Below are positions 14,705 to 44,236 of a stretch of DNA of 64,000 nucleotides, one piece after another. Below the pieces are notes generated by a model. It worked only from the letters and a program-made list of their open reading frames with translations, made no database searches and had not been told where the DNA came from. Numbering within the stretch: position 1 is the first letter of the stretch; every line of letters begins with the position of its first letter. This stretch comes from Eledone cirrhosa (Eukaryota): assembly GCA_964016885.1 (NCBI GenBank), contig OZ024740.1, forward strand, positions 95,356,001 to 95,420,000. Direction: 5' to 3'. Both the position numbers and the translations under genes were made by a program.

Positions 14705-14807
14705 AAGTATTGAAATTTCCGTTGGAAACAGAAAAGGTCATAGAAATGAAGAGTGCTCTATGTAAGTATCAGAGCAAAATTTAATGTATAAAAATCAATA
14801 CAATATA

Positions 14808-14885
14808 ATTACCTCATTACCAGAGGTTTCCCGAAAGAGGCGAATACGAAATAAACGACTTCATTCGTTCGTCAGAAGAGGCAAT
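14808..14885 (-). ncRNA. Type I hammerhead ribozyme (inverted-arm copy)
   Basis: Reverse complement of 19985-20062 with intact CTGACGA, GAAA and GTA. Confidence 0.83.
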
Positions 14886-16105
14886 ATAAAACATGGGCAA
14901 ATACTTAGAAAAACACATCAAGAAAATCAAAAAAAGATATAGATAAATGAAATAGAAATTGAAATATATAAAAATCTATCAAGAAATATAGTTAGGTGTG
15001 TGTATATGTATGTATATACGCTCACAGATGTGCATATATGTATATGCGCACATGTATATGTATAGTGAGAAAGTGTGCGTAATTCTAAAATTTAGGGCAA
15101 ATGTATCTATGTGTCTGTATTATACAGACAGAAATGGTTACATCGTAAATATATAAATATGAAGGCTCGCGCATAAAACGCCTGGACACTCGTACACTTA
15201 GATGCGGAAAGAAAGGAGGTAAGGGAGTGTAATAATTAAAAGAAAACTATCAGTCTCGATATATTTATAAAAATATAATAACGATAAATTAGAAAGAAAA
15301 TATATAAGAAAGAAAAAATTAAAGAAAACAAAAAGGGGGGGGGGGTACATACATACACAGACACGCGTGTCTCACAAAAGAAATGTAAAAATAATTATGC
15401 TTATATACACACGCGCACTTACACTTCCATACGTTCGATACGTACGTACACACACACACACACACACACACACACACACACACATACTTATACTCGCGCA
15501 TATAAACCTGTTTGCATGCCCACGTATGAAACTGAGTAAGTAAAAAAAGGGGAAGGGAGGGGGGAGAAGAAAAAAGGAACAAAACATAAAACCGAGATGT
15601 CAAAATCACGGATATAAAGACACGTACACATACGCATAATATATACATACACACACACACAAACACCTGTACACACACACATATATACACATATATATAC
15701 ATATACATATATACATATACATACACGCACGCGCGCGCACATACGTAGTCACTCATGTACATATATAAAAAGTATACACACATTAAGGCGTTCAGCCATA
15801 TTGAATTGTGGATAAATAAGTACAAATATAAAAATGTAAGATAGGCTGCGCAAAAATAAAATAAAAATAAAAATGAAAAATATATCTGGATTGAAAAACA
15901 CAAAAGACAAGTATAATCAGTTAGTGGAGGAAAAAGGGAAGTAAAAGAAGGGGAAGAAAAAAATAGAAAATAGGAAGTGGATCGGAGAATAAAGGGGGGG
16001 GGGGGTGAAGTAAAAATAAATAAAAGTGAAAATAAATGAAATTATTGACAAGGATAAAAATGAAAGTAAGTCAGAAAGGGTAATTAAAAAGAGAATAATA
16101 AGAGT

Positions 16106-17271
16106 TTATGGAGGATAAGTATCTGAAAGTGTGTTAAGTTTATATGAGCTGGAAAGCAGGTGTGATTTCATGTGTGGGCAACTGGTGAAAATTTCCGTCT
16201 TTGTGTTCAGGCAGGTCTTTGGTGATTTAAGATTTTGCAATATCCAACATTTTTCATTTATGCAGAGCCTGCATTTTCTTGTTCCTCTAGCATATTTTTT
16301 AGATTGGTTCAAAATTGACCAATCTAGTTTATATTGGATGCCTTGGTCTTTCAAATCCCAAATTCTGCTAGCCAGAGCTGTTGTAAATCTTTTTTCTGGA
16401 TGTCGAAAGCATGCGACATGTGAGTAATAACGCGTTTTGAATCTGTCTTGCGTCATACAGTCATATCGTTCACTGGTGGCTGGATGGTTGTTGCTGATGG
16501 TTGTCACTTTAGCCGCATATACCATGGCTTTGGTGTTGCATTTACCTTGTAATGGGCATTCACTTTTGATTCTACAGGAGCAAGTTTGATTTTCTCTAGG
16601 TGATATTTTGTTGAGGATATAGGACTCAATAGGGGGACCGCAGGAATAACTAATTTTAACACAGTTTCTGTTAAAGATCTTATAGTATCTATGTGTTCTA
16701 GGGAAATTTTTATCTAGGAGTTCTAGGAATTTTTTGCCTACATTAGTTTTAACTGCTAGAGAGTAGGGGGGTGTTAACCAGATTATTTTTCTTTTCCTAT
16801 TCTTATGTTTAATAGAGTTAGTGTAGTTAGGTATGTATTTAATCGGTTCGCTAAAGCCGCTATTTTGGAGGGCTTTATTATAGTAGGGGGATGCCTTATT
16901 AAACATAGCTTCTGAGGAAGAGAGGGTGGAGATCCTACGGCTAATATTAGGGATGAGGTTTTTAAAAACTATAGGTGGATGGCAAGATCCTTTATTTATA
17001 TATTTTAAGTTTTCATTAGGTTTATGGTATGGTTTATAAGAAGCAGTAGGCAAATCTAGGTTTATATCTAGGAAATCTACGTTGGAAAGTTTAGTGTCAA
17101 TAGTAATTTTAAGATTAAAACTAGCGAAGGTTTTTATTAAGTCTTTCCTTAATCTATCTAAGTTATGGCCTATGGTGGTATGGGAAAGTATTAGACCATC
17201 ATCGGGATAAAGCCCAAAAATATGGTTAGGAAATTTTTCTTTAAGTGTATGTAAGAGGAATAGGCCGACCA
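16106..17271 (-). pseudogene. Inverted partial copy of the same PLE ORF
   Basis: 391-aa ORF near-identical to the + copy. YRDD>YPDD and YVG>YDC. Retains the C-terminus SCPHMKSHLLSS. Confidence 0.92.
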
Positions 17272-40483: not shown

Positions 40484-42230
40484 TAAGTTAGACATTTTCT
40501 TATCCACCTCCTCTAATTGGTCTACTTTCTAACTTAAATTTATGGTTTGGTACATCTGAAGTAATTGGCTGGTTCAACAACTTGAATAAGAAAAACAAAC
40601 AAAAATGTATTCAATTTGATATTGAATACATTTTTCTATTCTTCTATTTCGCTCTCACTTCTCAACAATGCTCTATATTTCGCTTATAAATATTCAAACA
40701 TCACCACAGAGGAACTTCACATCATTCTCACCGCACGTAAAACCATCTTAGAATTCAACAATGAATACTGGACTAGAGCTGATACCTCCAACAACTTTGA
40801 CATTACAGTGGATGCATCAGATTCATCCCAATTGACAGATTTAATTGGTATCTTTATTTTAAACTCTTTGTATCGGAAAATTCCACAACTTCGCGGTGGA
40901 ATTTATCGGGATGATGGACATTTTACTATCATAAATTGCAACATAGTTAACCTTAATATTAGTAAGAACAATATACATGATCTCTTTAACGAACATAACT
41001 TAAAAATAGAATTTGATAACAACGTCAAACTAGCTAACTTCTTGGATATATCCCTTAATCTTGACACTGGCCTATATTACCCTTACCATAAAAACAATGA
41101 GAATCTAAATTATGTTAATTTTAAATATAAGCACACCACTAACATTAAAAATGCTATAGATAGTGTAATTGAAAAAAGAATATCAAACCTATCATCTAAT
41201 AAAAATATCTTTGATGCTAACGCCAATTACTATAATAACGCGCTTTCTAAAGCCGGTTATCCTGATAAAATCAAATACAGTAAAGAAACCAATCCTAGAA
41301 GATCTTACAGTAAAATAATTAATTATGATAATTCTAATAACTTTAATAAAAGGCCTAGATACAAAATTATAATCTGGTATAATGCTCATTTCTCCATCTC
41401 TATTAATAATAATATTCCTAAATTATTCTTCAGGGCCTTGCATAAATGCATGCCTCCCTCACATATCTATAGTAAAATATTTAACAAACATACAATAACA
41501 TTATCCTATTCCACCTCCTCCAACATCTCCAACATTATCTGTAAACACAACAATAAAATATTAAATACTAAATCACTTCCTTCCAACACTGAATGTCATA
41601 ATAATAGCAGTAGAACTCCCGACGTCATTGTTAACTCTAGGGTAGTTTCTGCAAACCCAAATACGACGTCAAACGTTACTTCGTCAAATGTTCTTAATAC
41701 CAAACTAAATCAGGAAATTATTATTCCTATCGTAAATAACTTCTCCAATCCAATTCCTCCTATAGATAACACTAGGTCACTTGTCAGTAACTCTGTTAAT
41801 TTTTCTAATCGCAATTGTTATACCCCTGTTAAAAATAAATGTCCTCTCAACAATCTTTGTCTTGAAAAAAACTTAATCTATGAATGTAAAGTTATAACTG
41901 ACACCAATTCCTTTACCTGTTTTGGCTCCACTTCCACCTCCTTTAAAGCCCATCTTTATAATCATGATTCTTCTTTTAAATACCAACTTAAAAGAACCAA
42001 CACAGCCTTCTCGGAACTCGTATGGTCGTTGAAAGAAAAAGGTATTAACTATAACATCTCTTGGAGGAAAATTTGTTCTGCCTCTCCCTACGTGAATGCC
42101 TCTTTATCCAAACCATGTTAAATTTGTTTATGTGATAAATGTACCATTATATCTAATTTAAATTCTATAATAAATAGACGCATTGACTTATTTTCTCTCT
42201 GCTTGCATACATTCCACAGAACATTCCATA
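40484..42230 (+). pseudogene. Decayed PLE RT-GIY-YIG ORF (includes ORF 40616-42121)
   Basis: IQFDIE, GGIYRDDG, NFLDI, YPYHK, C-x-x-x5-CPLNNLC (CNC retained in the left arm), LIYECKV and LVWSLK. Confidence 0.9.
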
Positions 42231-43490
42231 AAGTATACAGCTAATATATAATACTTTACCAGTTTAAAATCCTTTTTCTCAAAGGCATATATATATATAT
42301 TTCTTTAAATATACCCATCTTTCTACCTTATTTCAATGTTATTTATTATACATTATATAACACTAATTACTCATTCTATATCAATCCTATTTATCAATTC
42401 CCTTTCTTCCTCTTTTCTTTTAATTTCTAACCTCTAATATGTACTTTTTCTTCCTAGATACTTCTCAATTCTTATTATTACTCACCACAATATAACCACT
42501 CTTCCTTCTTCCTTCATATCATTGACCATAAAACTTATGATTACCTTTTTAATACTTTATTGTATTACCTTTAAAAATTCTTCGTAAACATAAACATTGT
42601 TTGACGTTAGATTATTCCTCCTCTATTCATTATATTCTTTTCTCCCTTTCATGCTCGTCTAACTTTTACATATTACATATCATAATACATAAAAACAAAC
42701 TTAAACCCTAACTAATCTCCTTTATTACATTATATTATATTATTACCATTAGGAAATACTTCATAAACATATATATTTTGTTGTTAGAGTCTTCTCTTCC
42801 TTAAACACTATTTTCTTCTTTGTTTCTGCGCTCATTTGTAAACAAACTATTTACATATATTACGCATACATATTACATTACATAAAAACAAACTTAAACA
42901 CTAACTAATTCCTCTAAATCCATAATTCATCCACTCCTCTACTTCTTTTCACATTATATCCTTAATAACATTAATATTTTTTTAATTTAATAATACATAT
43001 TAACAATTTCTTTTCGTAGCACGTATTATTAAACCCTTCAATATGCAAACCTCAATTTAATATTATTCTTAATACATATTAACAATTTCTTTTCATCGCA
43101 CATATTCTTAAACCCTTCAATATACAAACCTTAATTTAACATTATTGTTAATTTTTTTTTCTCTTCATTAATTTTTTTCTCTTCATCAATTTTCAAATTC
43201 TTTTAAATTATCTTCCAACGGCTTTTTAACCTCTCTCTGTGAAACAATATATTGTTCTCAGTTATAAAGGCTATCTCTCTCTTTCTAACACCAATCTCTC
43301 CTCCTATCTCAACCTTCCTTATTATACTTCTCCCCAACGATTCTTTACTCTGATCTCTTCCTCTTTTTCATCCTTACCACCCCCTCCCATTGTTATCCCA
43401 ATATCACGCATCAATCTTAAATTACGTTTCACATGTTGATTTAAACTGCACTATTCACAAGTGTTTTTAAACATTCATATCATGTCTCCC

Positions 43491-43561
43491 TATTTTATCT
43501 GACGAAAACGCAAATGCCATCTCATAATGATATTTGTTTTTGAAATGCGCAAAATAAAATA
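43491..43561 (+). ncRNA. Type I hammerhead ribozyme with mutated cleavage triplet
   Basis: tattttat-CTGACGA..GAAATGCGCAAA-ataaaata (ATA>AAA). Confidence 0.7.
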
Positions 43562-44236
43562 CATGGAACTCTTTTAACCATCTTTTGATCTTATATTATA
43601 TGTATATATATATATATATATATGTATATATAAGATGGAAAAATTTGAACCGGAACAAAACAGAGAAGCAGTACAACGTATATATGTGTATGTATGTGCA
43701 TATATATATATATATATATATATATATATATATATATATATATATATATATATATACAGATAAATCTACCAATCAATGGTAGGATCTAAATCGTATGAAG
43801 AACTCAATGTAATCCGTATGTAGATATCGTGAAGCAAAGTTTAATATACAAAATGTTTAACGATATAATTCATTGGATATAGAGTCAAAAATAGAAATAT
43901 TAAAATAATGAAATTAAACAAAAAAAAACGGTTAATTATTTATGAAGATGGCGGGTAGTGAAGACGTATGTATATTTTCATCCTATGATATTTTGTAATA
44001 TATTTTACATAGATCGATAATAGAACGGACATACGGGGAACTACCCCCCAGAAACGATCGTAAAATAATGAGTGTTAATATGAATTAACCGTTTTATGTT
44101 TAATTTCATTGTTTTAATATTTCTATATATATATGTATATCAATTTATATATATATACATATATAGATATATATATAGAGAGAGAGTGAGAGAGATACAT
44201 CTGCATCTATTTAACTTTATTATATACTATATTTTC

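Follow-up and report, generated by a model that had tools for sequence, protein, structure and literature searches.

This report concerns a 64,000-nucleotide stretch of the Eledone cirrhosa genome (assembly GCA_964016885.1, contig OZ024740.1, positions 95,356,001 to 95,420,000 of the forward strand), hereafter the window, in which Penelope-like elements (PLEs) and retrozyme-like repeats lie as inverted pairs that bear on how such elements integrate. The window is AT-rich, microsatellite-rich animal DNA, and self-BLAST with alignment of the arms recovered eight head-to-head pairs, lettered A to F, S and T (Table 1). In bits, the BLAST scores of A, B, C, E and F ranged over 717-4145; D, matched in two pieces, scored 829 and 2345, S scored 339 and T 260. 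The arms together fill 21,137 of the 64,000 bp (33%). An earlier note on this DNA had described five of the palindromes and another at 61.3-63.0 kb; all six were found again, with coordinates agreeing to about 10 bp. Loci S and T, absent from that note, have the same layout and represent one non-coding family.

Table 1. Inverted pairs and related features of the window (positions count from its first letter; ORF, open reading frame; RT, reverse transcriptase; EN, endonuclease; LTR, long terminal repeat; SINE, short interspersed element)
Locus	Feature	Positions	Strand	Description
A	arms	14782-17271 / 17609-20087		spacer 337 bp
A	short copy	14706-17271	-	Hydra clade, 5' truncation within RT; ~76-nt tail candidate 14706-14781, followed by (TA)n
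A	long copy	17272-20087	+	spacer 17272-17608 in-frame RT; ORF to ~18741; tailless end
B	arms	21466-22386 / 23218-24146		spacer 831 bp
B	left arm	21466-22386	-	tailless end on (TA)57; hammerhead core 21560; PxGLN at 22264
B	spacer	22387-23217		no match to Hydra or Neptune profiles or Pfam; base skew uninformative as to side
B	right arm and extension	23218-24237	+	~91-nt tail candidate 24147-24237, followed by (TA)7; hammerhead core 24053; PxGLN 23340
C	arms	24516-26138 / 26447-28091		spacer 308 bp
C	long copy	24516-26446	-	Hydra EN remnant 26197-26445 in spacer
C	short copy	26447-28182	+	end 28092-28182 homologous to relic at 44.1-44.5 kb
D	arms	30675-32782 / 33077-35072		spacer 294 bp
D	short copy	30675-32782	-	Neptune-type, tailless; (TA)26 common with T
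D	long copy	32783-35115	+	spacer RT (YLDD), then thumb, linker, GIY-YIG
D	extension	35073-35115	+	~43 nt, tail candidate
E	arms	~38066-40471 / 41142-43596		spacer ~670 bp
E	short copy	37994-40471	-	Hydra; ~72-nt tail common to 63 kb copy; hammerhead core 38163
E	junction	40466-40497		perfect 13-14-bp hairpin, 5-nt overlap with short arm end; snap-back-type join
E	long copy	40485-43596	+	Hydra RT-EN remnant; tailless end; hammerhead core 43499
F	arms	61330-61955 / 62336-62963		spacer 380 bp
F	full-length frameshifted Hydra-clade ORF	61296-58496	-	start 34 nt past F left arm
F	direct pseudo-LTR (left arm and spacer)	61330-62335	-	enters ORF start without (TA)n
F	inverted pseudo-LTR	62336-62963	+	ends on (TA)8
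S	arms	37170-37441 / 37596-37864
S	short copy	37114-37441	-	tail 37114-37169; same family as T
S	long copy	37443-37864	+	2-9 nt short of one unit; start coincides with tail start; tailless end; hammerhead core 37622
T	arm and tandem units	~28632-28777 / 28780-30622		146-bp arm, four 464-bp tandem units
T	short inverted copy	28633-28777	-	tailless, on (TA)n; 0-1 mismatches/140 to tandem units
T	long copy	28780-30622	+	4.0 tandem 464-bp retrozyme-like units; ends with ~55-nt tail
	third E-family copy (63 kb copy)	62980-64000	-	tailed 3' end; cut by window edge
	C-family 3' end relic	44120-44580	-	on (TA)n; split by SINE ~44234-44424; hammerhead-like stem by eye
	solo hammerhead insert	52952-53009	-	58 bp between two (TA)n runs, nearly all type I hammerhead

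In all eight complete loci an inverted, 5'-truncated copy stands head to head beside the 5' end of its partner, with orientation called from ORFs (A, C, D, E), hammerhead ribozymes (A, B, E, S, T) or adjacency to an ORF (F). The spacer of the coding loci is ORF sequence continuous with one arm, on the plus strand in A, D and E and on the minus strand in C, and therefore represents the extra 5' reach of the longer copy, which is the right-hand one in A, D and E and the left-hand one in C. This bears out the earlier description of the coding loci as a longer and a shorter 5'-truncated copy joined head to head. Outward-pointing hammerhead cores occur in both arms of A, B and E, and the left arm of E resumes beyond a deletion of about 50 bp. 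A direct pseudo-LTR is represented by the tandem of T and by the left copy of F, which precedes an ORF without matching its 3' region; none is present in A to E. Eight of ten scorable PLE-like insertions are palindromic, the 63 kb copy being left out of this count as it is cut by the window edge.

The association of the ends with (TA)n, also claimed earlier, holds for most of them: a (TA)≥5 run lies within 26 bp of 13 of 16 ends examined, against a background of 6.3% of the window within 25 bp, although three of those 13 (the tail ends of A, B and D) were delimited by (TA)n itself, which makes them circular in this respect. It does not hold for the left end of C (265 bp away), the right arm end of C (105 bp) or the left end of S, which has merely a short TA stretch beside a (GAT)9 run. 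Neighbouring insertions share single (TA)n runs at 30623-30674 (T and D), 37865-37986 (S and E) and 62964-62979 (F and the 63 kb copy), and for this reason the flanks of earlier insertions are likely to serve as landing sites. T is much younger than D.

Four of the loci belong to the Hydra clade, which is defined by CxCX5C, DKT, CxxC and CxH motifs (PMC8557442; this and the other papers are cited for the accessible parts of their texts). A profile built from 80 relatives of A places RT followed by EN in A, E and F and an EN remnant in C, while the 63 kb copy was put in this clade by its DNA homology to E alone. In A, E, F and C a GIY-YIG-type EN stands at the C-terminus, with the Cys pair absent within the EN core (i.e., without CCHH); a Pfam search gave no EN match in the Hydra-clade loci. 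The CxCX5C linker is found in both copies of A, the short copy of E and in F, is decayed in the long copy of E and is not covered by the remnant in C. DKT is found in F, with A, C and E truncated before that region, and the short copies of A and E carry CxxC and CxH around the EN E/N residues. RWK, present in 69 of the 80 relatives, is missing from the decayed F ORF, and the other loci are truncated. Hammerheads were called by a pattern scan (null mean 0.13 per shuffled window), which found complete ribozymes in the right arm of A and the left arm of E and cores in their partner arms, and none in C, F or the 63 kb copy; that of A is a type I hammerhead in the 3' untranslated region (UTR) of the long copy, with its core at 19995. 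A search of Rfam at E≤1 returned 121 matches, nearly all to microRNA models and all below the gathering score, and no hammerhead family. The loci resemble Hydra-1_Obim (PMC8557442) in the C-terminal EN, CxCX5C, DKT, CxxC, CxH, hammerhead and (TA)n, and A matches it motif by motif when compared by eye. The families nevertheless differ, and the 3' UTRs of A and E (1.3-1.7 kb) make these elements longer than the usual <3 kb.

Locus F, which had been taken for a non-coding passenger, is by its layout a pseudo-LTR plus inverted pseudo-LTR ahead of a full-length Hydra ORF, since its left arm runs without a microsatellite into the start of that ORF. The ORF scored 40.1 on a Hydra N-terminal profile (p=0.002), and the F arms gave no match to its own 3' region (score 33 vs a shuffle mean of 31). 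In that 3' region (57900-58496, minus strand) a degenerate hammerhead-like motif lies near 58388; the region has no (TA)n end, perhaps owing to a deletion. The outer (left) end of the long copy of C has probably been lost by deletion as well, whereas the end of the short copy is likely to be element sequence because it is homologous to the 44.1-44.5 kb relic; an apparent N-terminal motif in this extension was dropped. Two local features of E were also observed: an Asn/Ser-rich insert of about 55 residues between thumb and linker (41600-41770), present in both arms and similar to the N-rich inserts of rotifer Penelope, and a perfect 15-bp hairpin at a frameshift in RT (40601-40635), which looks like a later snap-back repair scar.

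Locus D has a CCHH-type GIY-YIG domain and a CX2-5CxxC linker whose spacing to GIY-YIG fits Neptune, not Nematis; DKG was seen in its relatives alone (69 of 71). Neither a strict nor a relaxed scan found a hammerhead in D, though a variant ribozyme could escape such a scan, and because of this result D is called Neptune-type here. B ends in a T-x-P-x-G-L-N motif, as Neptune ENs do, and the core of that motif, PxGLN, occurs only twice in the six frames of the window, once in each B arm. No homology for B was obtained with two home-made profiles (Hydra, Neptune), blastx, six-frame Pfam or the atlas (one ORF), and phmmer gave four matches, none to a retroelement and most to repetitive proteins. 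The likeness to the Neptune clade is qualified by the lack of a detected hammerhead in D and of a profile match in B. Still, the outward-pointing hammerhead cores and the only two PxGLN motifs of the window suggest that B is probably a decayed Neptune-like PLE and probably not the non-coding passenger it had been called.

S and T are, from their sequence features, retrozyme-like repeats: the unit is non-coding and low in GC, and its predicted fold is very stable (z=-7.2). In T the hammerhead is complete in units 1 and 3 and has one change each in units 2 and 4, and every substitution is private to its unit. The long copy of T starts 0-3 nt off the register of its own tailed end and that of S 2-9 nt off the register of its own tailless end, a coincidence expected by chance at 0.0006-0.0025 (post hoc, n=2). 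These copy ends are not ribozyme ends, as the hammerhead cut site is about 250 nt distant. Reading in whole turns on a circular RNA template, a scheme already put forward for PLEs and retrozymes (PMC4209133; PMC7229834), probably accounts for the register, and multimeric RNA blocked at each start site fits as well. At 29175-29200 the unit RNA is predicted to form a small hairpin, and the tailless end of T falls within its loop; in vitro, PLE start sites lie in a stem-loop (PMC11167929). S and T resemble metazoan non-LTR retrozymes (PMC7229834; bioRxiv 10.64898/2026.07.22.740005) in being non-coding, low in GC and tandem, with a type I hammerhead per unit. However, their unit is longer (464 nt vs about 300, with 220-390 in published examples), and they bear the insertion signature of PLEs, an inverted 5' copy and a one-sided tail. 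A term search of the accessible text of these two papers did not find this signature on retrozymes; the preprint argues from homology, and the PLE enzyme was left as a strong candidate for the mover of retrozymes (PMC7229834).

Each of the six loci that retain two intact outer ends (A, B, D, E, S, T) has exactly one extended end, longer than the other by 43-91 nt, which has p≤0.016 if the ends chose independently. The tail was shown to be element sequence in three of the six, namely E, where it is common with the 63 kb copy, and S and T, where it is common to both and internal to the unit. It belongs to the shorter copy in A, E and S and to the longer copy in D and T, with the side not assignable in B, and the same long and short end positions recur across independent insertions. 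A copy of the longer cDNA (complementary DNA) cannot gain a tail absent from its template, and E and S (A too, if its tail is real) therefore require either two initiations or extra trimming. In vitro, the tail corresponds to the interval between two adjacent internal RNA start sites of reverse transcription (PMC11167929). The tails did not score as ORF starts: none of nine candidates, including a flank control and two retrozyme tails, scored on the Hydra N-terminal profile, and the F control alone did so. Similarity between tails of different families was marginal (p 0.03-0.05, uncorrected, 21 pairs).

The inner junctions could be resolved in A, D, E, S and T and are of several types. That of S is blunt with one added base, A has an overlap of 0-1 nt, T has 2 nt and a 5-7-bp hairpin, and D has a microhomology of 4/5 to 6/7 nt, inferred from a conserved V-M-G-Y context (the V is present in 13 of 20 pattern-matching relatives, of 71 examined). 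The hairpin at the E junction is not unique, with two other such hairpins within the 5.5 kb of E, and it emerged on a repositioned junction after a 50-nt palindrome test had been null at all nine points as first placed. This mix resembles host end joining, including snap-back synthesis-dependent microhomology-mediated end joining (PMC5728401). As for the spacers, five of eight loci fall within 266-380 bp, with p between 0.02 and 0.17 depending on the null, and a regularity of spacer length is not established.

Taken together, the best explanation, which we consider moderately likely, is that paired cDNAs are primed at both ends of one break and then joined by host end joining. The PLE protein would nick both target strands, and cDNA synthesis would be primed from each of the two 3' ends; in a single event the two polymerases, each probably on its own RNA, would start at different RNA sites, leaving exactly one tail, and would stop independently, so that the spacer would be the length by which the longer cDNA exceeds the shorter. 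The single-stranded 3' ends would then be united by blunt, microhomology or snap-back joining and filled in. S and T would likely borrow this machinery in trans, probably with circular RNA as the template, and synthesis would end at the point of its start. Besides the tails on shorter copies and the mixed junctions, this model draws on biochemistry, as a PLE protein cleaves and extends both target strands in vitro and a dimer is predicted (PMC11167929). The proposal of the earlier note, double target-primed reverse transcription at a break in symmetric (TA)n followed by joining, is partly supported: double priming with joining is the best-supported model, and a symmetric (TA)n is not required, because rotifer copies with inverted pseudo-LTRs carry 9-10-bp target-site duplications (TSDs; PMC3846280).

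Several points weigh against this reading. The mechanistic evidence is all indirect and comes from eight loci in one window picked for its palindromes, and the in vitro work concerned a Poseidon-clade element, not Hydra or Neptune (PMC11167929). The tail count excludes C, whose left end is probably deleted, and F, whose left copy enters the ORF; the window contains no further copy of the tail candidates of A, B and D, which also failed the N-terminal coding test (p 0.51-0.95) and could be flank, and with verified tails alone the one-tail rule stands at 3/3 (p=0.125). TSDs cannot be read, the ends lying in (TA)n. Arm lengths look correlated, the ratio of short to long being at least 0.78 in four of five long loci (p 0.001-0.33, depending on the null); independent stopping would give no such relation. 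The window further contains two PLE-like 3' ends that stand alone, with no inverted twin, the insert at 52952-53009, which is likely a very short solo PLE 3' end, and the relic at 44120-44580. Finally, self-priming equally predicts the hairpins of E and T and the microhomology of D (PMC3846280), and PLE tails have been attributed to an intermediate that the endonuclease resolves (PMC8557442), a view on which a hairpin model would be viable again.

These last points lead to the rival that survives best, a fold-back in which one cDNA, or an antisense RNA (PMC3846280), copies itself and the endonuclease trims one tail at integration. It is the published model for head-to-head PLE structures with junction palindromes (PMC3846280), and it is favoured by the similar arm lengths, the hairpins at the E and T junctions, the microhomology at D and the ascription of the tail to the endonuclease. 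However, an extra trimming step is needed to put the tail on the shorter copy, its place in A, E and S (verified in E and S), the S and A junctions show only 0-1 nt of microhomology, the tail in vitro is the interval between two start sites (PMC11167929), and the flanks are not copied. We regard a fold-back as unlikely. A second rival retains priming at both ends and places both polymerases on one shared RNA, where a leader starts at the tailless site and its cDNA is then displaced by a trailer that initiates at the tail site. This would make exactly one tail obligatory, as seen in 6/6 loci, would account for the similar arm lengths and agrees with two adjacent start sites on one RNA (PMC11167929). 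Yet in D and T the tailed copy is the longer one, so the leader would have to drop off first, and the long copies of S and T stop at their own start register, which separate templates fit better. A shared RNA is decidedly unlikely by our estimate, whereas double priming in either form, with separate or shared RNA, is on the whole probable.

The remaining rivals can be judged by the history of the arms. Divergence between arms is 0.7-12.6%, specific to the locus and uniform along the arms, and the ratio of non-synonymous to synonymous change (dN/dS) in coding arms is 1.03 in A, 0.98 in D and 0.64 in E; pooled, 31 of 124 coding differences are synonymous (p=0.27 vs neutrality). Because of this divergence, with coding dN/dS near 1, the arms of each locus were likely identical at birth and hence are neither artefacts nor separate insertions; the value for E, below 1 but not significantly so (p=0.13), is the one that goes the other way. 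Neutral divergence suits any duplication, and thus a single insertion could have been duplicated in inverted form by a later replication or repair event, of which the snap-back repair mark inside the E ORF at 40601-40635 might be a sign. This seems very improbable, as homology ends at element 3' ends and not in the flanks (shared matches of at most about 11 bp), tails occur on short copies and the same discrete ends recur in independent loci. Two independent insertions at the same spot, or recombination of neighbouring inverted copies, could be invoked as PLEs cluster, insertion beside earlier copies has been noted (PMC6765202), and a single (TA)n is common to the two members of T/D, of S/E and of F/63 kb copy. 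The neutral dN/dS speaks against this, as does the lack of any (TA)≥5 run at the inner junctions. The possibility that the arms of one locus group with different subfamilies is contradicted in E, S and T: in the three of eight loci having a third copy the arms group together (E, 7.7% apart vs 17-18% to the third copy; S, 8% vs 15-18%), and an 80-bp derived duplication common to both E arms is missing in the 63 kb copy. Independent origin is accordingly most improbable. Assembly or amplification chimeras are hardly credible: fold-back chimeras usually appear as inverted duplications around a spacer, transversions exceed transitions (289 vs 200) and the CpG excess is weak, but the arms have diverged to a different degree in each locus and evenly along their length, many transversions mark other repeat pairs of the window too, break points coincide with element ends and the flanks differ. 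CpG decay (42/192 vs 38/255 for GpC, p=0.06) is weak and was not used as evidence against an artefact. The excess of transversions over all arm pairs recurs in two of three other repeat pairs and is probably a genome-wide mutation pattern.

The layout itself, with an inverted 5'-truncated copy head to head, a (TA)n target and a tail at one end, is published for PLEs (PMC8557442; PMC3846280; PMC8969392; PMC4209133), and the earlier remark that inverted pseudo-LTRs are known from PLEs is indeed in print (PMC8557442; PMC3846280). The loci share this arrangement with insertions of EN-bearing PLEs, such as Penelope-13_HM of Repbase, and schistosomes have hammerhead pairs on opposite strands 100-700 bp apart (PMC4209133). 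They differ in that arms extend to 2-2.5 kb (for A, C, D and E, 78-88% of the longer copy), most loci are without a direct pseudo-LTR, the arms occupy a third of the window and the candidate tails measure 43-91 nt vs 30-40 nt (PMC8557442). A PLE specialist would find the loci unsurprising as further cases of this layout, and what is new is the indirect evidence on mechanism. In L1 twin priming, too, cDNA is primed from both target strands and microhomology links the two products, but the second primer anneals inside the RNA and the inverted parts do not overlap, whereas here both copies contain the 3' end. Our literature search found no paper deriving the layout from double priming, testing it by tail side or reporting the signature on retrozymes, although PLE reviews of 2005/2006 and an enzyme paper of 2004 may hold such a model. 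The accessible text of PMC11167929 does not link both-strand extension to inverted repeats, that of PMC12910113 has nothing on palindrome geometry, and the formation of tandem and inverted PLE structures has been named an open problem (PMC8557442).

The side of the tail, the type of junction and the register of the 5' end are cheap discriminators of double priming and self-priming that can be applied genome-wide, and the presence of the PLE signature on retrozyme-like repeats is relevant to the identity of the enzyme that mobilises these repeats. More tentatively, it is possible, though we would not call it likely, that PLE integration is double-ended by default. A paired ribonucleoprotein would nick both strands and two polymerases would always start at two different RNA sites, so that every insertion would be a palindrome with one tail, the second arm being very short in some cases; retrozyme circles would be mobilised likewise, stopping after whole turns. 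If true, one mechanism would cover inverted pseudo-LTRs and tails, there would be insertion-level proof of PLEs moving animal retrozymes, and PLEs would be a main source of long double-stranded RNA for adenosine-to-inosine editing in such genomes. In octopus, the proportion of loci that can form long double-stranded RNA is reported to be exceptionally high, and lizard Penelope to be massively edited (PMC5625713). The palindromes may feed editing or silencing, if transcribed.

The window also holds other repeats. Remnants of long interspersed elements lie at 6858-7986, with an RVT_1 match, and at about 35240-37110, the latter ending in (GAT)9 directly beside S. Two SINE-like repeats in opposite orientation (8318-8497 and 44246-44425) are 88% identical and have no adjacent twin, and 28330-28430 is presumably a SINE-like repeat too. 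A degenerate G/T-rich satellite of about 30 bp occupies 53600-55730, and a 500-bp AT-rich segment occurs twice (54761-55260 and 55714-56218, 75% identical). Near the start of the window, at 818-972, lies a 155-bp self-complementary element with (TA)14 near its centre.

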